DNA from: an uncultured Anaerolineales bacterium
GTDB lineage: Bacteria; Chloroflexota; Anaerolineae; Anaerolineales; UBA11858
Assembly: GCA_964419495.1 (NCBI GenBank)
Contig: CAYQQX010000008.1
Span: 163-64,162, forward strand
Direction: 5' to 3'
DNA length: 64,000 nt
A program made the position numbers and the translations under genes. Positions 1,394 through 16,059 of the stretch are shown here, in pieces; within the stretch, counting starts at the first letter, position 1; every line of letters begins with the position of its first letter. The notes beneath the pieces were generated by a model that worked only from the letters and a program-made list of their open reading frames with translations, was not told the origin of the DNA and searched no databases.

Positions 1394-4300
1394 ATGATTG
1401 GGAAATCAAAGCAATTTTTAAGTGTAATTCTATTGATTTTTGTTTTCGCGATACCGGGAAAAGTTTGGGCAGAAGAAGAACTGCCCCCGGCCAATCCTGG
1501 AGGCCGTATCACTGGGCCGATTATCACTGGGGTGAATCCTGATCCAGATCCGACAGAAGGGCAGCTTTCTGAAATTGAAATTACTGGGGGTGTACAGCAG
1601 CAATCTCTAGGTGTGTCGGTGTCATCGGAAACACCCCCATTGATGAATGTTGCTGAACAAATGGTTATTGAGGCCCCTTTGATGGAAAGCTCCCTGGCAG
1701 TACCGATGCGCGTTCAAGATCCCTTGGATGTATCCTGTGGTGTGCAGGCGTTGGGTATGGTGATGGATTACCTGGCATTGGATGAAGGTCAAGAAGCTGC
1801 GCCAAGATCAGAAGAGCTTTTAACTGCACTCAAAGATGGGAGTCTGTTGCACGAGTGGGGTACAGGCGTGGAAGAGTTGGCCTATGTAGCTCGACAGAAA
1901 GGTTATGCTGGTTCATATAGTTTCCATGATTGGACGTTGGGGCAAATTCAAAATCAACTAGCGTTAGGCCGTCCGGTAGTTGTATCGCTGGGTGTAAATG
2001 GTGAAGGGAAGCCAGGACACTTTGTGACCGTTACCGGGATCTCAGAAGATGGTCAATGGGTGAGTTACAACGACCCTGCTAGAGGCAGAATCACAGTGCC
2101 AACGGCTGAATTCATGGTGCATTGGAGTTGGCAGGGGTACTCGGGTATGATAACCCAACGAGAAGCACTGGTGAAGAAAGCGGACCCCATGCTGCCAGTG
2201 ATGGGGATGTTCAGTGCTTTATCAGCGATGACGGTGATGTTCTCGAACCTATCGAAGCAGCAGCAAGGCTTATTGCAAGTGCTGCGTCCCAAAGGGGGCG
2301 GAGTTCCGCTGGTGAAGCGCTCGCGGGGTCGAAGCCCGCGAGTGCGCAACCTTGAGAAAGCTCAGCAGCTCCGCAGGCCTGGCAGTCGTGCCTGGCCTAC
2401 GGGAGAGGGTCGACCCGTACCGGGGAAGCTGAGTAGGCATAAACGACCCAATGCGGTGCGCCAGAAGAGGAAGAAACCTGTGCAGCGCGCGAGTGGATTG
2501 GTCACCTGGCGTTCGCAAGCGTTCCCTTCAGCAAAAGAGCAAAAAATGGCCGCTGATCAACTACACCGCAAACGCGCTGAAGTTGTGCAAGCCGAAAAAC
2601 AGTCCCGGGATCTGGTTTCGAGCGCCGAAGCTAGCGGCCACAGGTTGGTTTTCCGGGCACAGAGCGCGTTAGTTCAGTCACAAAGACACTCAGAAATCTA
2701 TCAGCAACAGGCGCGTCAGCGTGGTGACAGGACAGTGGCACAGGCGCGCAGAGAGTATGCCCAGGCGCAGAACAGGGCCAAGGTGATGCTCGCTCAGGCG
2801 CGCAGCCAGGGGGCTGCATGGGTGCGAACTGCAAATCGTAAACTGAATCAGGCGCGCAGTACGGCGGGGTCCTGGCTGAGCAATGCGGTACGTCGCGGGC
2901 GGGGCTTGACTCAATCGGCTAATCATCGACTCAGGCAGGCGTACAGAAGGGGGAAGTATTATTCACGCCGGGTATGGCGTCGCAGCGGCAGATGGGGCAA
3001 GTGGACAAAAATTTTTGGCCGCCGGCGAGGGCGCGGGAACCGGCTGGTAGCGGGCGCACAACGGAATGTTAGCAGAGAGCACCGTCGTTCCAGGAACTCC
3101 TCGGCCCGTTGGCGCAATCGCAAGATGTCCGGTGCGCAGGGTAATTTCAGCAGAGCAGTATACCGTCGAACCAGTAACTATTGGTTTTATAAGCGAGGGC
3201 GAGGTAACCGACTGGTGACCGATGCCCAGCGGGATGTAGTTAAAGCGCAGGGCCGGGCAAATCGCTTGATGGGGTCAACCCAGGCGCGCGCTAACCGTCT
3301 TATCAGCCAAGCCAGGAGTAAACTCAAACGAACTCAAGCCAAGGCTGCCCGATTGCTGGAAAAGTCCCGGCAACGCGGGCGCGAACTGGTTGGCAAGGCT
3401 AGCGGCGATCTGGCAGCCGCCCGTCGGCAGAAGCTGAGTCAGATCAAACAGGCTAAGAAGCGTGGTGCAGCACTGGTCGCCAAGGCGCGCAGTGCTGTGC
3501 AAAGGGCGCAAGCGAGGCTCATTCAACCGTTGGTACGCCAATTGGCTTTACGCAGAATAATTGAGCTGGAAGTGATCAAGAGGCGCATTGCTATGATGAT
3601 AGACTTGATGCGCCGCTTTTTGTCAAACCCTAAGCGTTTGGGCATTGGGGGTGGGATTAGACTGTCAGATCTGAGGGCCAGGGTCAGCCGGGCCGGAAAA
3701 TCGAGGTTTTCAAAACCCAGGTCGGTTGTAAAAACAATATCCAAACCCCCCTCCAAACCGGAGAAACGCGAACAGGAACCGGATCCGAGGCCAAGCTGGA
3801 GAGCCGCAGCGGCGTTAGCGGCCGAGCGCCAGGCCGCTGCCCGAGCTGCCCAGGCGGAGCAGGAGCGGGTAGCGCGTCTCAAGCGAGAAGCAGAGGCAGA
3901 AGCACAACGAAAAGCAACTGAGGAGGCAGCTCGCAATGCTGCAGCAGAAGCAGCAAATCAGAGAGCCGCAGCAGCGTTAGCGGCCGAGCGCCAAGCTGCT
4001 GCCCGAGCCGCCCAGGCGGAGCAGGAGCGGGTGGCTGCGCTGAAACGTAATCAGCGATCTCAATCCGCTGGGACAAGTCTCAATGCTGGGAGTGTGAAAG
4101 GAACGAATGGTGGGAATGCCAATTCAGTTGCTTCGAATCCACCTATCAGCCAACCTAAATCTGCAGCTAACGTGCAAGCAAGCCAGGCAACGCAAGCTGT
4201 CAATACACCTGGCGCTTCTGTTTTCGCTGGCGATTTAGGCGATGCCGAAGTGCGCGCACAAATTGCAGCGGTGGGCGGGGATCCCAACATGGATATTAAA

Positions 4301-6505
4301 CAGGCGCGTGCCATCATCCACAATGCTCGCATTGCCTCGAAATTTCGGGCACAGCAAATGGAACAGGAACGGTATCAGAACGCTAAAGAAAACCTGCCGA
4401 CTTTAATGGCGAAACTCCCTAAAGATGAACTCCAGGCTGGGTTTGGTATAACAGCTAATCAGCAAGTAGAGCAAGCGCGGCGTCAGCATGCTGTCGAGAA
4501 CCTGCCAGGGCTGTTTGTCAAGCTACCTCGAGAAGAATTATTTGCCGGATTGGGTTTGTTAGCTAAGCAGCCAGCCCAACAAAGAGAGCAGGATCGCCGC
4601 CAGAAAGCCGTAGCCAATTTGCCTGATTTGTTTGATATGCTGTCGCAAGATGAACTTTTAAGGGGTACAAATCTATTGGAGAGGCAGCAAAGAATGGCAA
4701 TGGCAAATTCGCTGGCCAGTTGGAAATCGGTGGATATGGCCAATACAGCAGAGGTCATTGCCAGAAGAGAGAGGAGTTGGTGGCAGAATGCGGTGATAGA
4801 CACTGCCAGCCTGTGGCAGAAATTCGATCAGTCTGCTGGTCAATGGGTCAGAGATAAATTCCGCAGACCCACGCAAAACTATGCCAATTGGGTGCAAAAT
4901 CCGAACCAACTGCTGGAGATAGACGCAGCGACGCGTAATGTGCAAACAGTTGCAGTGCCGTCTTTCTGGTTACACCCTGTTGACTGGTTGCAGTCCAAGC
5001 TGATCAATACGGGACGACAAAATAAACAAAACGAGAAAAAGATCATAGCAATTGCGAATCGCAATAATACTCTTACTTCGAGATCACAACAAGCTGTTGC
5101 ATCTCTATTTGCTAGCACAATTCAGTCGATTGGTATAGTTCACCAGCAATCAAGATCAAGAGCTATGGTTGGATTGGAACCTCTACCACAAGGAATTAAA
5201 AATCACTGGCATTTGGTTGGAAACACCTTCTTCAATGCATTAAATTTCGCAAGTATGGGCATATTAGATACGACGCGAAAGGCGTTTAGTTCAAACACGG
5301 CCCGATTGATATATGCATCTACATTAATGGCCATCAATGAGGCTATTGCGCACACTAGCCATCACAGTTTGCGTGTATTAACTGAGAAACGGTTTTCCCA
5401 TCGTTTGGGGGCATCAGCAGAAGCGGCTTTTGGTTTATTCAATCTTATTAGTTTTGGAGCACTGGGAGATATTCGATATGGGATGAAGGAGAAAGACTGG
5501 CTGCGCGTCGCTGGCGGAACTGTTGGGCTTATTCCCTTTTTAGGAATAGCAAGAGGCGGTCATGTATTATATCAAGGTGGAAAATCTGCATTACGAGCAG
5601 TGGGAACATCTCTGTTCACCCGTGGCGCTAGTGGTAGTATATCTCAAGCAGTTCGAGGATCTTGGGATGATGTTTTGCGTTTCTTGCGTCATCAGCGAGT
5701 ACAGGATTTTAGAAGAATTATGCCAATTGTGGGATATGATGTTGCCCGAGCACAGAAGCTATCATCATTGATCACCCAAGCTGATGAAATTAGTGATGGT
5801 ATCATGTTTGCACGTGAGATCAACCAAGGTATCGCGAACGATGATCCATTGCAAATTGCATTAGGATTATTCTTTGGTTTGACAACTGGGGTTGGCATAG
5901 CTACTAATAAGCTTACTCGTCCAGGATTATCAAATACCGAAATTTTTACACTATTACAACAGAGCAGTCGATCAGAAATCCAGATATTGGAAATTTATAA
6001 ATCTCGTTATGGTTATTCGACGACGGCAGAGATTAGAAAAGCATATCTAGATGCAAGTATATTTAGAAAACTTGAGTCGCCTCCAGGAATGTTAAACAAA
6101 TATGTACTTAGAGATCTATTTAGCAACGGATATGGATTGGACGATTTGCCAGAAGCCAAACTGGATGCATTGCTAGAATATTTCAAAACCCCTCAAGGCC
6201 AAGAATTTTGGTTAAATGATACTATGTATTTGGGGCGGCAGTTTGATATATATGAGTTTATGAGTGGGAATACAAGCTTGAATGGGATTTCACTCCATAG
6301 CTATGACAGCTATTCGGGATATTTGAATGAAGGCCTGATTGATTTAGCGAATTCCGTGGGCTATCAAGCACGCGGAATTTCAACAGTTATGGGAGTTGAA
6401 ACCAGCGTAACCATGAACGAGTATTTGTATTTGATGAGCAAGTATCAGAATATATTTGATCTAGATGGAAATAGGCTTACTATAGAAGGTTTTGCCCGCA
6501 AATAA
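1394..6505 (+). CDS. giant mosaic membrane/secreted protein (1703 aa) with an N-terminal C39-like cysteine peptidase and a polymorphic-toxin-like C-terminus
   Basis: RBS GGAAGGAG lies upstream. Signal peptide MIGKSKQFLSVILLIFVFAIPGKVWA. C39-like catalytic motifs QDPLDVSCGVQALGMVMDYL and GHFVTVTGISEDGQWVSYNDPARG. Hydrophobic helix MLPVMGMFSALSAMTVMFSNL. The rest comprises about 500 aa rich in Arg/Lys/Gln/Ala, internal repeats, a GGTVGLIPFLGIARGG motif and an AT-rich tail. Confidence 0.85.
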   Translation: MIGKSKQFLSVILLIFVFAIPGKVWAEEELPPANPGGRITGPIITGVNPDPDPTEGQLSEIEITGGVQQQSLGVSVSSETPPLMNVAEQMVIEAPLMESSLAVPMRVQDPLDVSCGVQALGMVMDYLALDEGQEAAPRSEELLTALKDGSLLHEWGTGVEELAYVARQKGYAGSYSFHDWTLGQIQNQLALGRPVVVSLGVNGEGKPGHFVTVTGISEDGQWVSYNDPARGRITVPTAEFMVHWSWQGYSGMITQREALVKKADPMLPVMGMFSALSAMTVMFSNLSKQQQGLLQVLRPKGGGVPLVKRSRGRSPRVRNLEKAQQLRRPGSRAWPTGEGRPVPGKLSRHKRPNAVRQKRKKPVQRASGLVTWRSQAFPSAKEQKMAADQLHRKRAEVVQAEKQSRDLVSSAEASGHRLVFRAQSALVQSQRHSEIYQQQARQRGDRTVAQARREYAQAQNRAKVMLAQARSQGAAWVRTANRKLNQARSTAGSWLSNAVRRGRGLTQSANHRLRQAYRRGKYYSRRVWRRSGRWGKWTKIFGRRRGRGNRLVAGAQRNVSREHRRSRNSSARWRNRKMSGAQGNFSRAVYRRTSNYWFYKRGRGNRLVTDAQRDVVKAQGRANRLMGSTQARANRLISQARSKLKRTQAKAARLLEKSRQRGRELVGKASGDLAAARRQKLSQIKQAKKRGAALVAKARSAVQRAQARLIQPLVRQLALRRIIELEVIKRRIAMMIDLMRRFLSNPKRLGIGGGIRLSDLRARVSRAGKSRFSKPRSVVKTISKPPSKPEKREQEPDPRPSWRAAAALAAERQAAARAAQAEQERVARLKREAEAEAQRKATEEAARNAAAEAANQRAAAALAAERQAAARAAQAEQERVAALKRNQRSQSAGTSLNAGSVKGTNGGNANSVASNPPISQPKSAANVQASQATQAVNTPGASVFAGDLGDAEVRAQIAAVGGDPNMDIKQARAIIHNARIASKFRAQQMEQERYQNAKENLPTLMAKLPKDELQAGFGITANQQVEQARRQHAVENLPGLFVKLPREELFAGLGLLAKQPAQQREQDRRQKAVANLPDLFDMLSQDELLRGTNLLERQQRMAMANSLASWKSVDMANTAEVIARRERSWWQNAVIDTASLWQKFDQSAGQWVRDKFRRPTQNYANWVQNPNQLLEIDAATRNVQTVAVPSFWLHPVDWLQSKLINTGRQNKQNEKKIIAIANRNNTLTSRSQQAVASLFASTIQSIGIVHQQSRSRAMVGLEPLPQGIKNHWHLVGNTFFNALNFASMGILDTTRKAFSSNTARLIYASTLMAINEAIAHTSHHSLRVLTEKRFSHRLGASAEAAFGLFNLISFGALGDIRYGMKEKDWLRVAGGTVGLIPFLGIARGGHVLYQGGKSALRAVGTSLFTRGASGSISQAVRGSWDDVLRFLRHQRVQDFRRIMPIVGYDVARAQKLSSLITQADEISDGIMFAREINQGIANDDPLQIALGLFFGLTTGVGIATNKLTRPGLSNTEIFTLLQQSSRSEIQILEIYKSRYGYSTTAEIRKAYLDASIFRKLESPPGMLNKYVLRDLFSNGYGLDDLPEAKLDALLEYFKTPQGQEFWLNDTMYLGRQFDIYEFMSGNTSLNGISLHSYDSYSGYLNEGLIDLANSVGYQARGISTVMGVETSVTMNEYLYLMSKYQNIFDLDGNRLTIEGFARK
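3026..3233 (+). repeat. intragenic duplication in the Arg-rich region (RGRGNRLV..AQR motif, copies 56 codons apart)
   Basis: cgagggcgcgggaaccggctggta.. at 3026 matches cgagggcgaggtaaccgactggtg.. at 3194. Peptides: GRRRGRGNRLVAGAQRNV and YKRGRGNRLVTDAQRDV. Confidence 0.7.
3799..4036 (+). repeat. two ~75-nt near-identical copies 162 nt (54 codons) apart inside the giant gene
   Basis: gagagccgcagcggcgttagcggccgagcgccaggccgctgcccgagctgcccaggcggagcaggagcgggt (3799-) matches the copy at 3961-. Both encode RAAAALAAERQAAARAAQAEQERVA. Confidence 0.85.
4385..4700 (+). repeat. three tandem 36-39-codon units (ENLPxLxxKLPxxELxxGxG...Q..R)
   Basis: Units: KENLPTLMAKLPKDELQAGFGITANQQVEQARRQH, AVENLPGLFVKLPREELFAGLGLLAKQPAQQREQDRRQK and AVANLPDLFDMLSQDELLRGTNLLERQQ. 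The E/A-N-L-P anchors are at 4388, 4496 and 4613. Confidence 0.75.
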
Positions 6506-6519
6506 AAGGATGTCAACAT

Positions 6520-7101
6520 ATGAGTTATTTTAAAGATATCGAAGAATCCAAGTTTGTTTCTTGTATTCGTGAAAATTATGATTTCTTAATTGATGAATAT
6601 GGATTTGTATATGAATCGAATGATAGTCGAGAACATCACTATAGATCTGAGAGATGTAGAATATCAATCTTTTACTACCGTTATGAGTTGGATATCTCAA
6701 TATCTCCACGAAAAGAAGGGCTGGAGCAAATTATCACAAAGGAAAGATTCTCAGGAAAAGATGTTGGGTTAGTAGCATTTCAGTTTGGTGCAGATGGGCC
6801 AACGCGCTTGTCGGACGCCCATGTGGAGAGGCTCATTGTTGCAGAACTTGAGTTGCGAGCAAAGCAGGTAATAGAGTATTGTAAACCTTTTCTGCAGGGA
6901 GATTTTTCCAATTGGCCTGCTCATTTTAGGTTATGGACTGTAGATCCGGAAGAAATTCGACATCGCTTTGAGGGGCTAAGTTTCGATGAACAATATGACC
7001 TATATTGGAACACGCCATCGGAGGAGACAAAATATTTGGACACTCTGTTACAGGGAAAGTTTATGAAAGAAAAGCTTAGAAGGAAAAAAGAAGGTAAGTA
7101 G
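6520..7101 (+). CDS. hypothetical protein (193 aa); immunity-protein candidate by position
   Basis: It starts 14 nt after the giant gene stop and shares the AT-rich composition of that gene's C-terminal module. There is no signal peptide. I recognise no family. Confidence 0.6.
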   Translation: MSYFKDIEESKFVSCIRENYDFLIDEYGFVYESNDSREHHYRSERCRISIFYYRYELDISISPRKEGLEQIITKERFSGKDVGLVAFQFGADGPTRLSDAHVERLIVAELELRAKQVIEYCKPFLQGDFSNWPAHFRLWTVDPEEIRHRFEGLSFDEQYDLYWNTPSEETKYLDTLLQGKFMKEKLRRKKEGK

Positions 7102-7315
7102 CATTCTCATACCCAACCGCTCCACCATCGCCGCCGTTAGGCAGTCATTTACAGCCTGCGTAACTGAGGCTGTTGTGTTGCCACTGAAGCCGGGGTTATT
7201 TGCTGGTGACCTGAGCAATGCTGAGTTTCAGCGCTCTTTTACTGCCATGACCAAGATTTGCAGCTATGCCGCAAAAACTATGAAAATACTGTGATAATAA
7301 AAGGATGTACTGACT

Positions 7316-7738
7316 ATGAATAACAAAAAAAGAAAAGAAATGGCTGCCATAGTACGAACAATAGCAACAGAATCTATCCGTAGTTCGGGAGACAGACTTG
7401 TGTTGGGCAGGCCCAATGATTGCATTCAAAATGCTCTGGACTATGGTGGTTTTTTCATTGATGCAGGGCCAGAAGTCATAAACATTCTTGATCAGGCGGG
7501 AATTGATCCAGCAATCGTTTATATTGAAGCGCTGAAAATAAAAATGGAAATGGGAATTCCGCGTGTTGATTTCATAAATATAAACCACGACGCGCAATTG
7601 AGTAAACAGGTGGATGATTGGAATGCCGATCCTTCAATTGCTATTCAGCAAATGCAATGGATGATCAAGAATGCTGGTGAATACGGATATCAAAGAAAGG
7701 GTGACAGTTGGATATTGAATGATGAGCAATCTGACTGA
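7316..7738 (+). CDS. hypothetical protein (140 aa)
   Basis: An AT-rich ORF with AAAAGGA upstream. It ends 9 nt before cpaB. I recognise no family. Confidence 0.5.
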   Translation: MNNKKRKEMAAIVRTIATESIRSSGDRLVLGRPNDCIQNALDYGGFFIDAGPEVINILDQAGIDPAIVYIEALKIKMEMGIPRVDFININHDAQLSKQVDDWNADPSIAIQQMQWMIKNAGEYGYQRKGDSWILNDEQSD

Positions 7739-7747
7739 AATCCAACC

Positions 7748-8410
7748 ATGCCCCCTCGCTCCCCCCTAACCACCCCTGACTGGCAGGCCGCTGTCCGTCG
7801 GCGCACGCAGTTCTACCTGCTGATCGCCTTCTTTCTGGCGGTCTTGTTTGGCGTGCTGGTTTTCCAGTTCTTCATGCAGCAGCGCGCTGCCCAGCCAGAG
7901 GTACTCACCAAGGCCGTCTTCGCTAACCAGGAGATCCCCATGGGGGAGGCCATCACTGCTGAAATGCTGGTGGAGCGCAATGTGCCCGGCGAGGCCGTGC
8001 CGCCGCTGCATTACAGTTTTATCGAACAGGTCGTAGGGCGGGTGACGCTCTACCCCCTGGTGGCCGGCGAGGTGATCCTGCCCGGTAAGCTGCTGGGCGA
8101 TACCGGTGGACCCGTTGCGCAGCGCTGTCCGTCTGGGTATTGGTGTATCAGCATCCCGGAGGCGTGGTTCGTAGCCACCCCGCCTGATCTGGCCGAAGGC
8201 GACAGCCTTGAGATCGCCGCGGTGCAGCCCGGCAACCCGGCCGATGAAGCTGGGTATATCGCCACCGAAGTGCTGGTCGTGGCCCTGCCCCATGGGGGTG
8301 AGGGCAGTGCTTATATACTGGCAGTCGATGACCAGGAGGCCTTGTCGATTTTGTACGCCCATGCCAATGAATTTAAGTTGCTGGTGCTGCTGCGCCCGGC
8401 GGGGAGTTAG
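7748..8410 (+). CDS. cpaB: Flp pilus assembly protein CpaB/RcpC-like (SAF domain)
   Basis: An N-terminal TM helix (FYLLIAFFLAVLFGVLVFQFF) is followed by a SAF-like segment (IPMGEAITAEMLVERNVP...VAGEVILPGKL). The gene is first in the tad gene order. Confidence 0.75.
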   Translation: MPPRSPLTTPDWQAAVRRRTQFYLLIAFFLAVLFGVLVFQFFMQQRAAQPEVLTKAVFANQEIPMGEAITAEMLVERNVPGEAVPPLHYSFIEQVVGRVTLYPLVAGEVILPGKLLGDTGGPVAQRCPSGYWCISIPEAWFVATPPDLAEGDSLEIAAVQPGNPADEAGYIATEVLVVALPHGGEGSAYILAVDDQEALSILYAHANEFKLLVLLRPAGS

Positions 8411-8412
8411 CC

Positions 8413-9177
8413 ATGGGCGTCGTCCTGGGAGTCTTCTCAGCAAAGGGTGGTGTAGGCAAGAGCCTGGTGGCTAGCAATCTGGGGGCGGTCTTCGCCGGAG
8501 GGCATCAGTTCCCCACGGCATTGATCGATCTCAATGCCGGTTTGGGGTCAGCCGATCTGCTCCTGGACTTGGAACCCGAACGCAGTTGGTCAGATTTATT
8601 GCTCGTAGCGGAGGAGCTCACCCCGCAGCATATCAACCTGGCCACCACAAAACATGAGTCTGGGCTGCATCTTCTGGCCTGCCCAGAAGTCCCTGATGAT
8701 CAGGTGAAGATCACCAGAGATTCGCTTGAAGCCTTGTTGAGCGCCTTTCGCCAGGAATACGCCGTGACCCTGTTGGATGTCCCTACCGGGATGGGAGTCA
8801 TCAATGTGTCTGCTTTCCATCTGGTCGATATTGCCCTGGTCTTGATCACACCCGATGCGCCTGCATTGCGGGCTACGCAAAGTTATCTGAACTCACTCTC
8901 CAAGCATGAAAGGCCGCTTGGTCTCGTGCTCAACCAATACGGACGCGGCGCACCGGTCAGCCCCAAGGAAATCGAGGCCCATTTCGAAAGGAGGCTCTAT
9001 GCCATTCTACCGGTAGATCAGAGCGCGGTCTGGGCTAACGTCAGCTACGGTCAGCCCTGCGCGCTCAGGCAAAGAAGGGGCTTGGGACGGGCTTTGCGAA
9101 GTTTATCGAAAACCGTGCTCAAGGTCGCCAAACGTTCGCGAAATTGGGATTACAGCGACCGTTTTAATAGTGCTTAG
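8413..9177 (+). CDS. tadZ: TadZ/CpaE-like ParA/MinD-family ATPase
   Basis: It has the deviant Walker A FSAKGGVGKSLVASNLG. It sits between cpaB and cpaF. Confidence 0.8.
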   Translation: MGVVLGVFSAKGGVGKSLVASNLGAVFAGGHQFPTALIDLNAGLGSADLLLDLEPERSWSDLLLVAEELTPQHINLATTKHESGLHLLACPEVPDDQVKITRDSLEALLSAFRQEYAVTLLDVPTGMGVINVSAFHLVDIALVLITPDAPALRATQSYLNSLSKHERPLGLVLNQYGRGAPVSPKEIEAHFERRLYAILPVDQSAVWANVSYGQPCALRQRRGLGRALRSLSKTVLKVAKRSRNWDYSDRFNSA

Positions 9178-9308
9178 GTAATCTCGTCCCCCCCTTTTTT
9201 TGGTAAATCCGATCTTTGGCTGAGCACTTACAACGGTGAAATAGTAGAGAAAAACTTATAAAAATTGTAATAGTCAGGAATAGATTGAACAAACACCAAA
9301 TGAAGTTT

Positions 9309-9347
9309 ATTCTCCTTCTGCCCCCCCAAAAATTCTGGGGGGAGAAT
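9309..9347. repeat. C-run/G-run hairpin repeat
   Basis: attctccttctg-CCCCCCC-aaaaattct-GGGGGG-agaat. It lies in the tadZ-cpaF spacer. Confidence 0.7.
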
Positions 9348-9359
9348 CATAGTTCAGTT

Positions 9360-9385
9360 CCCCCCAAGGTTGGGGGGTTAGGGGG
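9360..9385. repeat. C-run/G-run hairpin repeat
   Basis: CCCCCC-aaggtt-GGGGGG-tta-GGGGG. Confidence 0.7.
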
Positions 9386-9459
9386 CTGATTTGTTTAACC
9401 TTCCATTGACTAATTCAGAAAAAATAAAAATCATACCAATCTGCGTGAATCAGAGTCCT

Positions 9460-10746
9460 ATGAATAACGGAAACCTCCCTACGCTAGAAGACCGTCTGCA
9501 CCGCCTGGCCAGTGAACGCATTCAGGCCCAAGGCAATGGCGCCAGTGCCTCTATCGTGAAAACCGTGGAGCGTGATGCCTTAGCCCGTATGGTGTGGAAA
9601 CTGCTCCAGGATGAAGGCGAGATCCTGACCCGTAAAACGCAGGATGGATTGGTCACTTCAGTCGTCAACCGCATTCTTGGTTTGGGGCCGATTGAGCCTT
9701 ATCTCCACGATCCCGAAGTCACCGAGATTATGGTCAATGCACCGGACGAGATCTTCATCGAACGGGACGGCCGTCTAGAGCAAGTACAGGCCTCCTTTCG
9801 GGATGCCCGCCACATCTTACATGTCATTGAGCGCATCGTGGCACCCTTGGGCCGCAGGGTAGATGAATCCGTCCCCTATGTGGATGCCCGTCTGCCTGAT
9901 GGCTCGCGCGTCAATGCCATCATCCCCCCGCTGGCGTTACGTGCCCCATCATTGACCATCCGGCGATTTTCAGCTACACCATTCACGTTGCAACGCCTGG
10001 TTTCTTTAGATACATTAGATGATCGCATGGCGCGTTTCATCCAGGCTTGTGTGCGCGCCCGTTTGAACATACTCATCTCTGGGGGCACAGGTTCAGGGAA
10101 AACATCCACGCTAAACGCTATGGCACGCTGCATTCCTCACCATGAACGGCTCATTACCATTGAGGACACTGCTGAGTTGCAATTGATCGCTAAGAATCTT
10201 GTTTCTCTGGAAGCACGCCCGCAAAATATCGAAGGCAAGGGGGAAGTTACCATCCGTACACTGGTGCGAAATGCCTTGCGCATGAGACCCGACCGCATCA
10301 TTGTGGGTGAGGTGCGCGGCGCTGAGGCATTCGACATGCTGCAAGCCATGAATACTGGACACCCAGGTTCTCTCACCACTGTGCATGCAAATTCTCCCGA
10401 AGATGCTATCCGGCGTCTGGAGTCAATGATCCTGATGGCTAGCCTGGAACTTCCCCAACCGGCTATCAGAGAGCAGATCGCCAGTGCTATCGATATCATC
10501 TTGCAGCAGGAGCGCTTGCCAGGTGGGCGGCGCAAAATAATTTCGATTGCAGAAGTCGTTAGTGAAGATGGTTCAAGTTGGGGAGAGCTTCAAGTCAAAG
10601 TTCAAGAGATTTTCCGCTTTGAGCGCCAAGGGATGGATGATGAAGGTCTTGCCCTGGGGATATATCAGGCTACTGGATACCAACCCCAAAGTTTGGAAAC
10701 CATTCGTAAAGCGGGCATATCTATCCAGGCTGAATTAGATGAATAG
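9460..10746 (+). CDS. cpaF: CpaF/TadA type II/IV secretion ATPase
   Basis: Motifs: ITEIMVN, Walker A ISGGTGSGKTSTLNA, IVGEVRGAEAFDMLQAMNTGHPGSLTTVHAN. I chose the ATG at 9460 (MNNGNLPTLEDRL) over the TTG at 9391 given by the track. Confidence 0.9.
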   Translation: MNNGNLPTLEDRLHRLASERIQAQGNGASASIVKTVERDALARMVWKLLQDEGEILTRKTQDGLVTSVVNRILGLGPIEPYLHDPEVTEIMVNAPDEIFIERDGRLEQVQASFRDARHILHVIERIVAPLGRRVDESVPYVDARLPDGSRVNAIIPPLALRAPSLTIRRFSATPFTLQRLVSLDTLDDRMARFIQACVRARLNILISGGTGSGKTSTLNAMARCIPHHERLITIEDTAELQLIAKNLVSLEARPQNIEGKGEVTIRTLVRNALRMRPDRIIVGEVRGAEAFDMLQAMNTGHPGSLTTVHANSPEDAIRRLESMILMASLELPQPAIREQIASAIDIILQQERLPGGRRKIISIAEVVSEDGSSWGELQVKVQEIFRFERQGMDDEGLALGIYQATGYQPQSLETIRKAGISIQAELDE

Positions 10747-10766
10747 TTCAACAGTGGTGATATCTA

Positions 10767-10794
10767 CCCCCCCTGACCCTCCAAGATTGGGGGG
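10767..10794. repeat. C-run/G-run hairpin repeat
   Basis: CCCCCCC-tgaccctccaagatt-GGGGGG. It lies in the cpaF-tadB spacer. Confidence 0.65.
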
Positions 10795-10802
10795 AATTTG
10801 CT

Positions 10803-10849
10803 CCCCCAGACTTGTCCTGATCCTGTCGAAGGGATTGGGGGCCGGGGGG
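10803..10849. repeat. C-run/G-run hairpin repeat
   Basis: CCCCC-agacttgtcctgatcctgtcgaagggatt-GGGGG-cc-GGGGGG. Confidence 0.6.
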
Positions 10850-10866
10850 CATAACCAGGGATATCT

Positions 10867-11916
10867 ATGTTTCGTTGGTTAGGGCTGATTGGTTATTTGT
10901 TGGTGATTGCCTTCGCATGGCTGTTCCGCCAGGCTTTGTTCGATATGGCGCGAGAGCACTATGGATTCATTAGCGCACTCGTAGGAGGGCTGACGTTGTT
11001 TATACTCATCGTTCCCTTTATCGAAATAAGGCAAAGTCGCGGTTATGCTCGCGAATGGCGAGATCGTCTGGCAAGAAGAGATGCATTGCCGAAACCTCAA
11101 CCCTGGTGGCAGCGTTTGCGCCACTCTAATGACACGCTGCTGGACCGTTTGCTTGCCCCTATTTTTCGAAATCCAATTGGGCGGGGGCTGATGAGTTATT
11201 GGGCTGATGCCGGTTTTGGCGCGCATCCGGCCATTTTTCTTGTGGCCATTATATTTACTGCTTTGGGTGGATACCTGGTTGGCTATTTATCCACTCGCAG
11301 TGTGCTGTTAGGGGGTTTTGGGGCATTTCTGTCCTTGATTGCCTTGGCAGTATTGACCTTCACGCGAGCCAGACTCCAGCGCAGACGATTTAGCGATCAA
11401 TTTCCCGATGTCCTCGACCGGATAGCAGACTCCCTCCAGGCTGGTTTCTCGTTACCTCAGGCGATTAATTTCGTCATTCCAAATCTCTTTGAGCCCAGTG
11501 CTTCTGAGATGGCCCAGGTATCGGCTCAAATTGCCCTGGGATTTTCTGTGGATGATGCGCTGAGCGAGTTGTATCAACGCCGCCCCAGCGAAGATGTGCG
11601 CCTCTTGGTTGAAGGCCTGACTTTGCAACGCCAGGTTGGCGGGGATATGCCTGCAATGATGCGGGATATGGCCTCCTTTGTCCGCGGGCGGGTTGAGTTG
11701 GAGAATGAAGTGCGCACACTTACATCCCAGGGTCGTCTTTCGGCCATTGTGATTGCGTTATTGGTGCCGGTGTCGATCGGCGTGCTTTCCATGTTTCCGG
11801 GATATGTTGATGTCCTTTTTCAAACAACAGCAGGAAATCTTGTACTGATCGTTGCTGGAATTCTTGAGCTCATTGGTGCGGCGATTGTGGCACGCCTAGT
11901 TCGGGTTGAATATTAA
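10867..11916 (+). CDS. tadB: TadB-like type II secretion system F-family membrane protein
   Basis: A polytopic membrane protein with a cytoplasmic T2SSF-like segment (FPDVLDRIADSLQAGFSLPQAI...LTLQRQVGGDM). It follows cpaF. Confidence 0.8.
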   Translation: MFRWLGLIGYLLVIAFAWLFRQALFDMAREHYGFISALVGGLTLFILIVPFIEIRQSRGYAREWRDRLARRDALPKPQPWWQRLRHSNDTLLDRLLAPIFRNPIGRGLMSYWADAGFGAHPAIFLVAIIFTALGGYLVGYLSTRSVLLGGFGAFLSLIALAVLTFTRARLQRRRFSDQFPDVLDRIADSLQAGFSLPQAINFVIPNLFEPSASEMAQVSAQIALGFSVDDALSELYQRRPSEDVRLLVEGLTLQRQVGGDMPAMMRDMASFVRGRVELENEVRTLTSQGRLSAIVIALLVPVSIGVLSMFPGYVDVLFQTTAGNLVLIVAGILELIGAAIVARLVRVEY

Positions 11917-12129
11917 TTACTCATGTTACGCACATATGGTTAGGTTGCTTTGCTTCCAAGCCCGATTAATCGGGCGTTGATAGATAGCATGGGGATTTCA
12001 TCCCCGTGCGAGTCCGGAGCGGATTTTCGTAACATTCTTGAAATTTTCAACAATCGTCGAATTCGCTTGCCATGGGCGCCCTTTCGGCGAGCGATCACGA
12101 CAATCATGTTGGATGATTAACAGATAACT

Positions 12130-12999
12130 ATGTTCATCAGCATTGCTTTAGCGCTAACACTAGGCGGTTTTGTATTCGTGTTGCTATTATCACTGGATGT
12201 CCTTTTTGACCATCCGGCGAGAATACGAATGCAGCAGATATTTGACCTAATGCCAGAGAAGCGACGATCTTCATGGCAACAAATTTTTCGTACAGCATTG
12301 GGGGCGGTTCGTCCGCCACAATTTCTTGATGCCTGGGTGGGGCAAAAGGAACTGCACTGGGCTGGATTTTCTCTGGATGTTGTAGAGTATCGAGCGCTTT
12401 GGTGGCTGGTGTGCCTCTTTGGTGGCGTAGCAGGCATTTCGGTTGCGGCCGCAAACCAGTGGCGCGGCGTGAGCATGGCATTTGGGTTCATGTTAATGCT
12501 CGCAATTGCTGGAAGTCCCTATCTTTATTTGCGCTGGCGCATACGCCGGCGCACGCGCGCCATTGCTAAAAGTCTCCCGGATTTCATGGATTTGCTCACT
12601 TTTACCGTGCAAGCGGGTCTAGGGTTTACACCAGCCTTGCAGCGGGTTTGCGCCAGGTATCCAGGTCCGCTGGGTGAAGATCTGCGGCGTATTCTGGTTC
12701 AGCTTGAGCTAGGTTTCTCGCGTGCTGAAGCGTTGGATGAATTTGTGCGTCGATCTCCCTCCCCCGAGATCCAAAACTTTGTTGAAGCTGTCAAACTGAC
12801 CGAACAGCTAGGCACTTCCCTGGCTCGTACATTGGGAATTCAGGCCAAGATGATGCGCCTCACTCGCCGACAGCGTGCCCAGGCTGCGGCGCAGACTGCG
12901 CCAATCCGCATCATCCCCGCGCTGGTTTTTTTCTTCTTACCGAGCCTGCTGCTGATTTATCTCGCCCCACCAATCATCAATTTCTTTATGCGTCAATGA
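12130..12999 (+). CDS. tadC: TadC-like type II secretion system F-family membrane protein
   Basis: T2SSF-like segment LPDFMDLLTFTVQAGLGFTPALQRV...AVKLTEQLGTSLARTL plus terminal TM helices. Confidence 0.8.
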   Translation: MFISIALALTLGGFVFVLLLSLDVLFDHPARIRMQQIFDLMPEKRRSSWQQIFRTALGAVRPPQFLDAWVGQKELHWAGFSLDVVEYRALWWLVCLFGGVAGISVAAANQWRGVSMAFGFMLMLAIAGSPYLYLRWRIRRRTRAIAKSLPDFMDLLTFTVQAGLGFTPALQRVCARYPGPLGEDLRRILVQLELGFSRAEALDEFVRRSPSPEIQNFVEAVKLTEQLGTSLARTLGIQAKMMRLTRRQRAQAAAQTAPIRIIPALVFFFLPSLLLIYLAPPIINFFMRQ

Positions 13000-13451
13000 C
13001 TAAGAAAAAGATGCGCGTAAATCTGCGCCAATCCGCGTCCAAAAGAGTAGTTCCCGCTCAGACACTGGTTGAGTTTGCATTAGTACTACCGATTTTGTTG
13101 CTGCTTATGGTAGCCCTGATTGATTTCGGCGTGATTATGCACGCCCAAATTGTAGTTACCAATGCAGCTTGGGAAGGCGCGCGGGCTGGGGCTACGATTG
13201 TCAACCCTAAACAGGGGGATGAGGAAATCATCGGCGCAATCCACCGGGCTTCTTATGGACTCAACCTGGATAATCTTGAGATCGATATTGATCCAGAACA
13301 AGATGAAGCCCCTCGCAACCAGCCCTTCCCCGCGCCGCGCGGCGAACCCCTGACGGTAACTGTTTTATACGATATTCAACTCGCCTTCCCCAGTATCAAC
13401 TTCCCTGTTTCAGGCAAAGCTGTCACCATGATGGAGTACCAAAACCCATGA
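12996..13451 (+). CDS. tadE: TadE-like pseudopilin/pilus assembly protein
   Basis: TadE-type N-terminus AQTLVEFALVLPILLLLMVALIDFG. It overlaps tadC by 4 nt. The true start may be an internal ATG. Confidence 0.75.
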   Translation: MTKKKMRVNLRQSASKRVVPAQTLVEFALVLPILLLLMVALIDFGVIMHAQIVVTNAAWEGARAGATIVNPKQGDEEIIGAIHRASYGLNLDNLEIDIDPEQDEAPRNQPFPAPRGEPLTVTVLYDIQLAFPSINFPVSGKAVTMMEYQNP

Positions 13452-14047
13452 ACTTAGAACAACGTGGCCAGATCCTGATTGTGGTTGCCATATTATTATT
13501 GGTGGTCTTGTTTTTTTTGGCTGTGATCATCGATGGGGCGCGTTTGATGGTTGAAAAACATGAATTGAATCGCGCAGCCGATGCCGCTGCCAGGGCGGGG
13601 TTAGGGGTTGTTGGCGACCGTATGGTTACGCAAGTGGTGGTTGCCCAAACAGCCGCAGCCCTAAATCTGTGTACGCCAATTCCTGAGCATAATCTGCTAA
13701 CACCTGAGTATGTACCTCCTCCACCATGTACACCGACACCCATGCCCAGCGATTTCTATGCCTGGCTCAAGGATTACCACCGAGCCACCCTGGTTTCACC
13801 AGCCTTGCAGACATCGGTAGCTAGCCAGGTTCAGGCTTATGCCGAGAACAACAACATGGGGTTATCCAACCCTGCTGTGGTTGAGTTGGAAGTAGAATAC
13901 CCAGACGAGTATCACATCAAAGATCGTGACTTAAATATACTCGTTCGCATCCGACGTCAGGTGGTTGTCATATTTGCCGGCTTGTTGGGACTCGATCAGG
14001 GGGAGTTATCAGGCGATACCAAACAGAGTATCCCACAGAGGAAATGA
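13448..14047 (+). CDS. tadG: TadG/TadE-G-like pilus assembly protein
   Basis: N-terminus RGQILIVVAILLLVVLFFLAVIIDGARLMVEKHELNRAADAAARAG, the putative Flp pilus-assembly TadE/G-like pattern. It overlaps the preceding gene by 4 nt. Confidence 0.7.
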   Translation: MNLEQRGQILIVVAILLLVVLFFLAVIIDGARLMVEKHELNRAADAAARAGLGVVGDRMVTQVVVAQTAAALNLCTPIPEHNLLTPEYVPPPPCTPTPMPSDFYAWLKDYHRATLVSPALQTSVASQVQAYAENNNMGLSNPAVVELEVEYPDEYHIKDRDLNILVRIRRQVVVIFAGLLGLDQGELSGDTKQSIPQRK

Positions 14048-14048
14048 A

Positions 14049-14654
14049 ATGACTTTCATCAAGTTCGTAGTTCGCTGTTTGCCCATTCTATTTCTCGCAG
14101 CTTTGCTTGCGATGTTAGGCCATCATCTGGGAAAACATATCCCCTTGGATTTGTGGTATCTGCCCGCAATCATCGCACTGGTCTTGTTTATTAGTTTGCA
14201 GATATTTAAACGGGTTGCACCCTTGAATTTGATTCTCTTGTTGATTCTAGCCTTATCGGCAGGAGCTTTGTTGAACTGGTTTGATCTTGGAAGTAGCGGC
14301 TGGTTCCCATGGGTAGTACTGACATTGGGGTTAGTATCCTCACTGGCTTGGGGATACGGACTGGGAATTCGCCTTGGTTGGCTTGGGAATTTGCTTTATC
14401 TATTTTCGATTGTATACCTTTTGGGTTGGGTGCTCTTGTATTTCATCCCCCAAATCGAGACCTGGACATTGGCCTGGGCGCTAATTGGTTTATTTGTTTT
14501 TATGGGGTTAGTTACTCACATTGTTACAGAAGCGCGTTATTCTAGTGAGAATAAAACGGCAGTTCCTTTGGTTAGTGAATTGTTTGTTTTATTCTTTAAC
14601 TTATTTTGGGTCGGTTTACTCATTGAAGAAATGATTCGAAACTATATTTCATAA
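14049..14654 (+). CDS. polytopic membrane protein (possibly Bax-inhibitor-1/YccA-like)
   Basis: I chose the ATG at 14049 (MTFIKFVV..), just after the tadG stop, over the overlapping upstream start at 13965. It has about 6-7 hydrophobic helices. The family call is tentative. Confidence 0.55.
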   Translation: MTFIKFVVRCLPILFLAALLAMLGHHLGKHIPLDLWYLPAIIALVLFISLQIFKRVAPLNLILLLILALSAGALLNWFDLGSSGWFPWVVLTLGLVSSLAWGYGLGIRLGWLGNLLYLFSIVYLLGWVLLYFIPQIETWTLAWALIGLFVFMGLVTHIVTEARYSSENKTAVPLVSELFVLFFNLFWVGLLIEEMIRNYIS

Positions 14655-14677
14655 GCAATTTCCATGAAGGATGCCAA

Positions 14678-14914
14678 ATGTTTGATGTCATTGTCACCAT
14701 CGTTTTAATCCTTTTTCCACTTTTAATGTCAATAAAAGTCGTTCAAACCTATCGAAAGACAAATTGGATGTGGAGTCTGTTGCCTATTCCTTTTTTCTTA
14801 CTTACTGCTTTTGCCTTTGTTATCGATTGGGTAGATGGGTTTTATTTGCTCGTGTTTGGTTTTATTATCCGTCTAATTGTGGGGTTGATTAATAAGAAGA
14901 GAACTTCACAATAA
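14678..14914 (+). CDS. small membrane protein (78 aa)
   Basis: It has three hydrophobic segments and AAGGA upstream. I recognise no family. Confidence 0.45.
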   Translation: MFDVIVTIVLILFPLLMSIKVVQTYRKTNWMWSLLPIPFFLLTAFAFVIDWVDGFYLLVFGFIIRLIVGLINKKRTSQ

Positions 14915-14967
14915 ATTCAACCTCATATGGGATTTTCCCGAGTAAGTTGTGCTACAATACAATCGCT

Positions 14968-15435
14968 ATGCAGGATCAAAAACCATCTCGGAATCCCGTT
15001 ACCAAGCAAACTTATCGTAAGGAAACTTTCTGGCAGATCACCTTTCCATTGATTTTGGGATTGATCGTTATTGTAGGATTGGCCGTATGGACTGTAATTG
15101 TTGCATCTGGTGGAGGAAATGTCAGCCAGGCTGCTGATGCGTCATTGATCTTCTTGATCATACCTACTTTTGTGATGGCCTTCATCCTTCTGGCAGTGTT
15201 AATCGGCCTGGTTTATGGGATGTACAGCCTCCTGAAGTGGCTGCCGCCGAAATTCTTCACCCTACAGGGCTTTTTCTATCGCATCCAGGATCGTGTCCAG
15301 AAGGCCGCTGATAAGGCCGTCGAGCCGGCTTTGAGGGTGAAGAGTGCCGGCGCTGGCTGGCAAAGGGTAAAAAACGAATTCGTTCCCCGAAAAACAAACA
15401 TTGATATTCCTGGTGAAGGATCTCATGAGTTATGA
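14968..15435 (+). CDS. membrane protein (155 aa)
   Basis: ATG at 14968 (MQDQKPSRNP). It has two long TM helices. Confidence 0.55.
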   Translation: MQDQKPSRNPVTKQTYRKETFWQITFPLILGLIVIVGLAVWTVIVASGGGNVSQAADASLIFLIIPTFVMAFILLAVLIGLVYGMYSLLKWLPPKFFTLQGFFYRIQDRVQKAADKAVEPALRVKSAGAGWQRVKNEFVPRKTNIDIPGEGSHEL

Positions 15436-15647
15436 CAACCTCAAATCAACAAATTCCATCTGATAATAACTGGAAAACCAAAATCTTGATTGTCGGGGCC
15501 ATCATTGGTGCCCTGACCGGTCTAGGAACCGCCTATCTGCTCATTCAACGCGCCGACGAAGAAGAGGGACTCAAGATGTCTGCTGGGGATGGTGCCAAGT
15601 TGGGTGTCTCTGTATTCAGCTTCCTGCGCCAGATTTCCCAGATGTAG
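15432..15647 (+). CDS. small membrane protein (71 aa)
   Basis: It overlaps the previous gene by 4 nt. It has a single TM helix (ILIVGAIIGALTGLGTAYLLI). Confidence 0.5.
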   Translation: MTTSNQQIPSDNNWKTKILIVGAIIGALTGLGTAYLLIQRADEEEGLKMSAGDGAKLGVSVFSFLRQISQM

Positions 15648-15658
15648 AGGCGATTTCA

Positions 15659-16000
15659 ATGCGTTCCCTGGCTGAATTGAATGCCGAAGCGTATCGAAAA
15701 GGGGAACCGCCGTTATCAGATATCGAAATCAAGGAACTGGGTTCACTCATTCCCGATTGGGATGTCAATGAAGTTGATGGTATCAAGCGATTGGAACGCG
15801 TCTTCAAATTCAAGAACTTTGTCCAGGCAATTGCGTTTACCAACAAAGTGGGGGAATTGGCCGAAGAATACGATCACCATCCGGCGCTGCTGACAGAATG
15901 GGGACGTGTCAAAGTCACCTGGTGGACGCATTTCGTCAAAGGCCTGCATCGCAACGATTTCATCATGGCCGCGAAAACAGAGCAGTTGTTCAAAGCGTGA
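15659..16000 (+). CDS. phhB: 4a-hydroxytetrahydrobiopterin (pterin-4a-carbinolamine) dehydratase
   Basis: F.F.NF..A..F.N.V...AE...HHP....W..V.V.W.TH pattern: FKFKNFVQAIAFTNKVGELAEEYDHHPALLTEWGRVKVTWWTH. Confidence 0.85.
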   Translation: MRSLAELNAEAYRKGEPPLSDIEIKELGSLIPDWDVNEVDGIKRLERVFKFKNFVQAIAFTNKVGELAEEYDHHPALLTEWGRVKVTWWTHFVKGLHRNDFIMAAKTEQLFKA

Positions 16001-16059
16001 AATTTCCATAACTTCTGGTGTACTTGACCCCCAATAGAATTTCCTAAAGAGTCTTTACA

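Follow-up and report, generated by a model that had tools for sequence, protein, structure and literature searches.

What might a bacterium do with a very large protein that couples a signal peptide and a papain-like peptidase to a huge polycationic segment? The question is raised by a gene in a 64,000-nucleotide stretch (hereafter the window) of contig CAYQQX010000008.1, from an uncultured Anaerolineales bacterium, whose product of 1703 amino acids (aa) is here termed the query. An earlier note on this DNA had described the protein as a mosaic with an unusual domain order. The analysis reported here indicates that it is probably a polymorphic, or exchangeable-tip, antibacterial toxin of an undescribed family restricted to Anaerolineales, and that the gene at 6520-7101 encodes the corresponding immunity protein. 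The domain order would then be anything but unusual, as the exchangeable tips of its relatives point to the standard layout of polymorphic toxins, in which a constant N-terminal module is followed by a spacer or stalk, a pre-toxin domain, an exchangeable toxin, and an immunity gene.

A constant head joined to exchangeable tips

Searches with the full-length query returned 13 homologous proteins, to which searches with its first 316 aa added 39, and a scan of GTDB with one genome per species yielded 53 loci. Members are designated below by protein (P) or locus (L) number. All but one of the GTDB loci (52/53) reside in metagenome-assembled genomes of Anaerolineales/Chloroflexota, the other lying in a 'Desulfobacterales' bin, and several genomes hold two copies of the family. 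Approximately 60 relatives share the constant head at 35-75% identity, namely the signal peptide, the peptidase, a marginally hydrophobic helix, and the motif R-x-G-[IVL]-G-G.

The tips carried by these relatives are of the AHH, HD, C39_2, or DRLVLG type, or are unassigned. The L055 protein's extreme C-terminus is an AHH nuclease (E 9e-12), P0054 ends in an HD/HDIG domain and P0002 in a second C39_2 domain, and the 'DRLVLG' C-terminal module recurs in P0003, P0004, P0007, P0010, and L021. Gly-zipper tails were recognized by eye in P0006 and P0008. A 3D/lytic-transglycosylase end in P0009 and papain-like ends in P0011-P0013 had likewise been guessed by eye, and were set aside when Pfam gave no confirmation.

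The single member outside Chloroflexota (L059:2831-5620) is divergent and combines fn3, Peptidase_M23, and SLH domains. In appearance it is closer to a wall hydrolase than to a toxin with a swappable tip, and its 'Desulfobacterales' bin may be mis-binned.

No curated family covers this architecture, of which Pfam and NCBIfam recognize the C39-like domain only. In the searchable literature, C39 domains appear in polymorphic toxins as C-terminal toxins only, with no C39-headed toxin family, and nothing comparable is found for Chloroflexota. The family is thus apparently undescribed, with its constant C39-like N-terminal head representing a putative new delivery module.

Downstream genes co-vary with the tip

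The first gene downstream of the giant gene co-varies exactly with the type of tip, and it is on this basis that 6520-7101 (W_193) is predicted to be the immunity gene. A W_193 family gene comes next in both loci with the query-type tip (the window and L063). The short DRLVLG tip is followed by a '169-aa' family in four of four loci (L005, L008, L009, L021), the long DRLVLG tip by a '221-aa' family in two of two (L007, L011), and the C39_2 tip of P0002 by a 343-aa beta-propeller with a lipoprotein-like signal (L001/L002/L010). In L055, the AHH tip is directly followed by an open reading frame (ORF) that Pfam identifies as Imm11 (27.4 bits, with a cut-off of 22.1), and these two genes represent the clearest candidate in the family for a bona fide toxin/immunity pair. 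The small downstream genes mostly lack a signal peptide.

Traces of cassette exchange are also apparent. L007_201 is a chimera in which a W_193-like N-terminal half (50% identity) is fused to the tail of another tip, and L009_269 with L009_169, as well as L008_257 with L008_382, have the appearance of orphan toxin/immunity pairs. Past the P0004 toxin gene, L007:5598-9265 holds two near-duplicate pairs, each pairing a gene of 221/216 aa (74% identical) with a gene for an RyR domain (100/104 aa, 90% identical). In L009:10001-13791, the 392-aa P0036 is followed by an open frame that runs on to 11772, after which come a lipoprotein-like ORF, an orphan toxin of the DRLVLG type, and its '169' partner; a two-gene 'split' architecture was considered for P0036 and rejected, a frameshifted long-read assembly being the most likely cause.

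The window itself contains a standalone copy of the DRLVLG module (W_140), which shows 75-86% identity to the copies of L001 and L007. It ends 9 nucleotides before the SAF gene, as though it opened the Tad operon, and L011 is arranged alike. W_140 has no immunity-like partner of its own and departs from the fused tips at conserved positions (the H of THGSxDR, the N of VNEQ, and the E of EV..L). An AlphaFold2 model of W_140 (predicted local distance difference test score, pLDDT, 81.6) adopts an alpha/beta fold for which Foldseek found no match in the PDB (best E 1.3), and a profile of the DRLVLG module gave only chance-level matches to PDB sequences.

A pre-toxin domain and a tip with a single homologue

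Similarity between the query and P0002, P0004, and P0010, as detected by BLAST, ends by approximately aa 1247, at a junction around aa 1130-1247 that recurs in P0054 and P0061 ahead of different tips. Beyond this point the earlier note had listed several hydrophobic helices and a C-terminal module of roughly 310 aa, which can now be resolved into a pre-toxin domain (aa ~1277-1515) and a tip (aa 1516-1703). A search of 1.84 billion representative proteins with aa 1131-1703 produced ten matches, among which only P0053 (the L063 orthologue, 74% identity) spans the last 430 residues, the others covering just aa ~1277-1410 or ~1470-1510. Thus P0053 is also the sole homologue of the tip.

Because it is present in proteins with quite different ends, the region at aa ~1277-1515 behaves as a pre-toxin domain. 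Its carriers P0056-P0059 and P0062 differ from the query in both their N- and C-termini, and the motifs of the domain (AIxHTS..., GDIRYG, DWLRV, AREINQGI, and PLQIALGLFFGL...) appear in relatives in variants such as GDxRYG and GREI..G. In P0059, the domain is preceded by the partial end of an Rhs-associated core (TIGR03696 positions 53-76/76; E 7e-6, sub-cut-off because partial) and followed by a sub-threshold match to PIN, and in P0058 an HExxH motif was spotted by eye after it. No Pfam model matches the pre-toxin domain.

The tip has no match in Pfam, NCBIfam, or PDB sequences, a profile search of the last giving chance-level hits only. Pfam searches up to E 1 on four segments of the query, a check that the earlier note had proposed, and an NCBIfam search with the whole protein returned nothing besides the peptidase, and a further homologue search seeded with the C-terminal region brought no return. 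Modeling of the C-terminal end had been proposed as well, and yielded nothing usable: AlphaFold2, given a seven-row alignment of aa 1270-1703, reached a pLDDT of 38.

Given a tip that bears no toxin signature, the protein might be taken for something other than a toxin, either a Tad-associated surface adhesin or matrix anchor whose polycation binds anionic polymers, or a cell-wall remodeling enzyme, with the variable C-termini binding, or acting enzymatically on, the envelope of the cell itself. SH3_3 domains in the passengers of at least six members, PG_binding_1 in one, the M23 and SLH domains of L059, and the recurrent adjacency of Tad genes are consistent with such a role, which we nevertheless judge very unlikely. 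The pairing of an AHH tip with Imm11, the HD tip, and a pre-toxin domain that also occurs in an Rhs-type toxin (with a sub-threshold PIN match) are the marks of toxins, and neither the exact co-variation of tip and downstream gene nor the orphan and chimeric cassettes would be expected of adhesins or autolysins.

Table 1. Features of the toxin locus, in window coordinates
Feature	Position	Strand	Basis or remark
Giant ORF (query)	1394..6505	+	ATG start, 1703 aa, uninterrupted over 5.1 kb
Sec-type signal peptide, aa 1-26, MIGKSKQFLSVILLIFVFAIPGKVWA followed by EE	1394..1471	+	n/h/c pattern read from translation
Acidic Pro/Glu-rich linker, aa 27-100, net charge -11	1472..1693	+	Composition
C39-like (clan CA) cysteine peptidase, aa ~101-245	1694..2128	+	Pfam, alignment
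Conserved hydrophobic helix, aa 265-284	2186..2245	+	Kyte-Doolittle
First glycine motif LRPKGGG, aa 297-303	2282..2302	+	Aligns with R-x-G-[IVL]-G-G of other members
Polycationic R/K/Q/A-rich helical-repeat spacer, aa 300-745, net +97, 26% K+R	2291..3628	+	Composition
Second, canonical glycine motif NPKRLGIGGG, aa 745-754, with amphipathic helix before it	3626..3655	+	Shared context
Ala/Glu/Gln coiled-coil-like repeats, aa ~800-905	3791..4108	+	Exact 23-mer at aa 805 and 859
Conserved stalk: VFAGDLGDAEVRAQIAAVGG... block, aa 943-982, and three ENLP..L..EL repeats, aa 999-1113	4220..4732	+	
Junction, aa ~1125-1225 (WWQNAVIDT..., NWVQNPN, PSFW..DWLQSKLINTGRQN)	4766..5068	+	Homologues diverge beyond
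Pre-toxin domain, Gly-rich and hydrophobic, aa ~1277-1515	5222..5938	+	Shared with P0056-P0059, P0062
C-terminal tip, predicted toxin domain, aa 1516-1703, ~190 aa	5939..6505	+	Context
Predicted cognate immunity gene (W_193), 193 aa, no signal peptide	6520..7101	+	14 nucleotides past toxin stop
Standalone 'DRLVLG' module copy (W_140), 140 aa	7316..7738	+	Profile E 1.6e-61
Tad-type pilus operon: SAF/CpaB, TadZ-like ParA ATPase, TadA (T2SSE), TadB and TadC (T2SSF), TadE, TadF/G-like	7748..14047	+	Pfam

Integrity of the gene

The guanine-cytosine (GC) content jumps from 0.34 upstream of the gene to 0.61 in its Arg/Ala-rich part, and falls back to 0.35-0.45 over the tip and the gene that follows. 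Such a profile could betray an assembly chimera, joined where the composition shifts, or a decaying pseudogene, a possibility to which we give next to no credence. Records of an identical protein come from two sources and three contigs, the frame stays open throughout, and the orthologous locus L063 (approximately 81% nucleotide identity) keeps the order from signal peptide through tip to the orthologue of the 193-aa gene. Independent homologues bridge every compositional joint, P0004 spanning the one between head and cationic region and P0053 the cationic region through to the C-terminus, and for this reason the query cannot be regarded as an assembly chimera. The swings in GC content track amino-acid composition together with a probable exchanged cassette, as is the usual signature of horizontally exchanged toxin genes.

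Just 5' of the toxin gene, positions 800-1400 are of low GC content (0.32-0.34) and 90% identical at the nucleotide level to L063. This stretch contains an 85-aa ORF (1085-1342; KKPVVIEAIQFD...GDWIIKG...YPCKPDIFEQTYEPV) without a Pfam or NCBIfam match. Several ORFs of 80-137 aa lie antisense to the toxin gene (2065-4945, minus strand), and are probably shadow ORFs of the Arg/Ala-rich, GC-rich coding strand; a 'cluster' of neighborhood genes at 36 loci was dismissed, its members being shadow ORFs antisense to the giant gene. An Rfam scan of the whole window found no match, and scans for promoters and terminators gave chance-level results only.

The head and its glycine motif

The 1703-aa ORF, the signal peptide, and the C39_2-type peptidase of the earlier note all stand. 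Cleavage of the signal peptide, the most hydrophobic window of the query (Kyte-Doolittle 2.2), is predicted between VWA and EE, and the N-termini of homologues are equivalent. The peptidase matches Peptidase_C39_2 (PF13529) over aa 101-229 with 38.3 bits against a cut-off of 24, and the same domain also matches C70 (PF12385; 29.2 bits against 19) and C39 (PF03412; 22.6 against 22). Among 19 aligned family members, Q108, C115, H209, and D227 are invariant, as is the segment GTGVEEL (156-162). The solved structures nearest to the head by profile are the double-glycine peptidases LahT (6MPZ; E 0.005) and ComA, both of them weak matches.

Only three windows of the query are strongly hydrophobic, namely the signal peptide, aa 265-284, and aa 1485-1504. 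The second of these corresponds to the single transmembrane (TM) helix of the earlier note. A conserved hydrophobic helix does occur at this position, and its TM assignment is insecure because its hydrophobicity is marginal: the Kyte-Doolittle 19-residue mean is 1.56, with a family median of 1.51, against a classical threshold of 1.6. The helix may be either a weak membrane anchor or else a docking helix. Consequently, the coupling of an extracytoplasmic peptidase through a TM helix to a polycation, as had been proposed, is uncertain.

Basic residues follow straight after the helix in all members, and the motif (R/K)-x-G-[IVL]-G-G is near-invariant in the family, lying 82-86 or ~101 residues past the catalytic His (82-102 overall). 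C39 enzymes cleave after Gly-Gly. The retention of a double-glycine (GG) motif at a fixed spacing from the catalytic His suggests that it is a built-in substrate that allows self-release. In the query, KGGG near aa 300 is a degenerate form at the canonical post-helix position of the family, and the canonical motif occurs at aa 750 in a context, (D/N)P-x-R-x-G-I-G-G, that is also found in P0002, P0003, P0004, P0006, and P0007. The query and P0004 are unusual in carrying a long cationic helical-repeat block between the helix and this canonical GIGG. According to Pfam, the query contains neither an ABC_membrane nor an ABC_tran domain; a cluster of ABC-transporter genes near many loci was set aside as generic, its position being inconsistent.

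Cysteine is scarce in these proteins. The catalytic C115 is the only one among the 1703 residues of the query, leaving none in the 1424-aa passenger, and passengers across the family contain 0.26% Cys versus 0.76% in neighboring proteins of the cytoplasmic type.

A polycationic spacer that recurs in character

The extreme positive charge that had drawn attention to this protein is real: aa 286-760 contain 122 K+R versus 21 D+E (25.7% K+R), for a net charge of +101. It is not peculiar to the query, since the 250 residues after the GG motif are net-positive in most members (typically about +20, with a maximum of +63), ahead of a remainder that is neutral or acidic. Past this motif, the sequences of members are unrelated in detail and similar in character, with poly-Arg stretches in P0002 and P0003 and basic Tyr/Arg/Lys/Val beta-like repeats in P0006 and P0009-P0013. 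The spacer of the query is homologous to those of P0004 and P0053, and GRGNRLV..AQR[ND]V units repeat within its cationic part. The spacer of L063 (L063:275-2400) has about five tandem copies of ARSWLRYAERRGRGWIQxANxKLRGA, more than are seen by eye in the window, which suggests that repeat number varies between the two orthologues; the L063 scaffold has an N-gap within the spacer. Another observation concerns the Tad-adjacent L055 protein (L055:776-4499), which carries approximately 430 residues of Arg/Trp/Tyr/Val repeats (VPTYGWVWQTRYRRVRQR; RARRVYHAVRH) and GLGAG in place of GIGG.

The Ala/Glu/Gln repeats and the three ENLP..L..EL repeats were likewise found as described, the latter starting at aa 999, 1035, and 1074. 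The stalk to which they belong is common to the query, P0004, P0053, and P0054.

A recurrent but facultative link to Tad genes

The Tad-type apparatus downstream of the query was verified with Pfam, and its association with the family recurs in other genomes. The earlier note had asked whether homologues are always found next to tad genes, and they are not. Among 28 informative loci, defined as GTDB species-level loci with at least 3 kb downstream, a Tad operon lies directly downstream in eight and divergently upstream in one; where at least 3 kb is available on both sides (n=17), five loci are Tad-adjacent and 12 are not. Metagenome contexts add further adjacent cases (L001/L002 and L008 on the same strand, L005 divergent). 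The gaps between toxin and Tad genes measure 0.6-4.2 kb and are occupied by immunity or orphan genes, and in every adjacent case the toxin gene flanks the operon at its SAF (5') end. Adjacency spans heads that are just 40-50% identical, and genomes with two copies keep one of them elsewhere. We judge this association to be far above chance, an estimate made without a statistical test. The link is thus recurrent but facultative, being present in approximately 30% of informative loci. The pattern resembles that of effectors scattered within and away from secretion-system clusters; delivery by the Tad machine does not follow from it.

In the Tad region of the window (7100-16100), TadE and TadF/G-like pseudopilins are present, and motif scans revealed no Flp-type pilin (G-xxxx-EY), and no obvious A24 prepilin peptidase was seen. 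Two multi-pass membrane ORFs (13965-14654 and 14947-15435) have no family match. The missing pilin motif and peptidase could be accommodated if the head were a processing peptidase of the Tad system, acting on pilin or another substrate with a glycine motif, to which the tail was added secondarily; the head of L055 also resembles, far below cut-off (E ~0.02), the pilus- and amyloid-associated C39 families FilB and FapD of NCBIfam. Such a function is highly improbable, in that these last matches are insignificant, most members are not Tad-adjacent, the peptidase is predicted to lie outside the membrane, and a conserved GG motif is offered within the protein itself. Moreover, prepilin leaders are removed on the cytoplasmic face by A24 peptidases. 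The query contains no Tad-family domain recognized by Pfam.

Proposed export, self-release, and topology

We infer the export route and topology of the query from its sequence, with the GG motif probably serving in self-cleavage. In the mechanism that we favor, Sec would move the head across the membrane by means of the signal peptide, and the hydrophobic helix together with the GG motif would constitute a built-in double-glycine substrate. The C39-like domain would cut at this motif, probably intramolecularly, and so free the passenger from the surface of the producer. The polycationic, amphipathic spacer might then bind anionic envelope polymers or membranes of a neighboring cell and aid entry (binding of target-cell envelopes by the Arg-rich spacer is at this point a plausible inference only), and the tip would poison cells without the immunity protein. 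In some genomes Tad pili, which are encoded nearby and probably expressed together with the toxin, could provide cell-cell contact, and they would not be needed by all members.

Several features weigh against this scheme. The RRK that follows the helix and the net charge of approximately +100 beyond it form a classical stop-transfer, positive-inside signature, and Sec export of such charge against the membrane potential is unfavorable. The context of the GG motif (R-R-K-G-I-G-G) is unlike the canonical LSxxELxxIxGG leader, and in the query and P0004 an insert of 450-700 residues parts the helix from the canonical GIGG. Within 10 kb, Tad genes are missing from approximately 70% of the informative loci. 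The toxicity of aa 1516-1703 is predicted from context, because the tip has no recognizable toxin fold or motif and its model failed, and cleavage, secretion, and killing are all predictions.

In the main competing arrangement, the protein belongs to the same toxin family and the helix is a true anchor, with the peptidase outside and the passenger inside. The polycation would in that case be a stop-transfer or secretion-arrest element dependent on membrane potential, which keeps the toxin half in the cytoplasm of the producer until a trigger such as contact or pilus activity resumes export or passes the toxin to a dedicated machine, possibly Tad. Programmed secretion arrest is known in CdiA. 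The basic residues after the helix in every member, the net-positive 250 residues after the GG motif in most of them, an immunity protein without a signal peptide in the query, and the invariable position of the giant gene at the 5' end of adjacent Tad operons would all fit such an arrangement. We consider it rather unlikely, in that the helix is marginal across the family, most loci lack Tad genes, and the GG motif and the peptidase would end on opposite sides of the membrane, leaving neither with a role. Furthermore, Tad machines are not known to export a type I membrane protein. Because the helix is marginal, passengers carry wall-binding domains (SH3_3, PG_binding_1), and Cys is depleted, priority is given to Sec export with self-cleavage.

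A more elaborate and distinctly doubtful proposal is that the family provides the effectors of a new system for contact-dependent killing in monoderm filamentous Chloroflexota. A surface peptidase anchored by a weak helix would hold a toxin half whose export is stalled by the polycation, contact with a target or Tad activity would trigger completion of export along with self-cleavage at RxGIGG, and the Arg-rich segment would then take the tip into the neighboring cell. If true, a toxin class would for the first time be linked in its mechanism to a Tad-type machine, and polymorphic toxins would gain a new principle of processing and translocation.

Implications

Competition and kin recognition within microbial communities are shaped by polymorphic toxins, whose known classes each have an N-terminal delivery module as their defining feature. 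The module described here, comprising signal peptide, C39-like peptidase, RxGIGG, and polycationic spacer, would define a class confined to Anaerolineales, which are abundant filaments, mostly uncultured, that live in sediments, sludge, and mats and about whose antagonistic biology next to nothing is known. The family yields new candidate toxin, pre-toxin, and immunity domains that have no family assignment, and offers a testable case of built-in double-glycine self-release. Its recurrent linkage to Tad operons bears on how Tad-like machines join in contact-dependent killing, for which the toxin is unidentified.

Comparison with known systems

Polymorphic toxins are characterized by a constant N-terminus, a hypervariable C-terminal toxin, an adjacent immunity gene, and orphan cassettes (Zhang et al., 2012; PMC3482391). 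Like Rhs, CdiA, LXG, and MafB toxins, members of the query family have a pre-toxin domain, a downstream immunity gene, and orphan or chimeric cassettes, and the AHH (with Imm11), HD, and C39-like tips match known toxin types. The head, however, is absent from the trafficking and releasing modules catalogued in PMC3482391, where C39 is listed as a C-terminal toxin only (Tox-PL-C39). RHS, FHA, LXG, and PAAR elements are likewise absent from the query, and its spacer and pre-toxin domain have no Pfam model. Searches with Pfam and NCBIfam detected no RHS/YD repeats or Rhs-associated core in the query, the pre-toxin domain alone being shared with the Rhs-type P0059, and Pfam gave no match to the domain of two-partner secretion, FHA repeats, or the VENN/PT motif of CdiA-like systems.

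With the PCAT/AMS exporters, represented by LahT (6MPZ) and ComA, the head shares the clan CA fold, the Q/C/H/D set, and a candidate Gly-Gly substrate. It differs in that the peptidase is not fused to an ABC transporter and in that the candidate substrate lies in cis, C-terminal to the domain, in a motif context distinct from that of the canonical leader. Because a signal peptide precedes it, the peptidase is predicted to be extracytoplasmic, unlike the cytoplasmic PCAT domains. Another protein to compare is AvrRpt2 of Pseudomonas syringae, which belongs to peptidase family C70, the Pfam model of which matches the head above cut-off. This papain-like effector processes itself at a site that contains Gly. 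It is of the type III class, becomes active in plant cells, and has no signal peptide, passenger, or immunity gene.

The C39 toxin domains of StbD-CT and Cpe1 undergo redox-regulated, intramolecular auto-processing with a Gly-Gly cut (bioRxiv 10.64898/2026.05.07.723447), providing a precedent for self-release by a C39 domain inside a polymorphic toxin. The arrangement is reversed, however: there, C39 is the C-terminal toxin and the cut falls in the linker N-terminal to it, whereas the query has its C39-like domain as the N-terminal head, with the putative site C-terminal to it.

In the Kil system of Myxococcus xanthus, a Tad-like apparatus is needed for contact-dependent killing by a toxin that is still unknown (PMC8460266, PMC12075869). 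A Tad-type machine is there genetically linked to the killing of neighbors, whereas the link of the query family consists of genomic adjacency only, at about 30% of loci. The host of Kil is a diderm predator possessing a secretin, and Kil acts together with a needleless type III secretion system; no C39-headed toxin has been reported beside it. When the query is set against these systems, the sense of novelty conveyed by the earlier note is justified for the family and for the design of its head and spacer, and the architecture as a whole follows a known principle.

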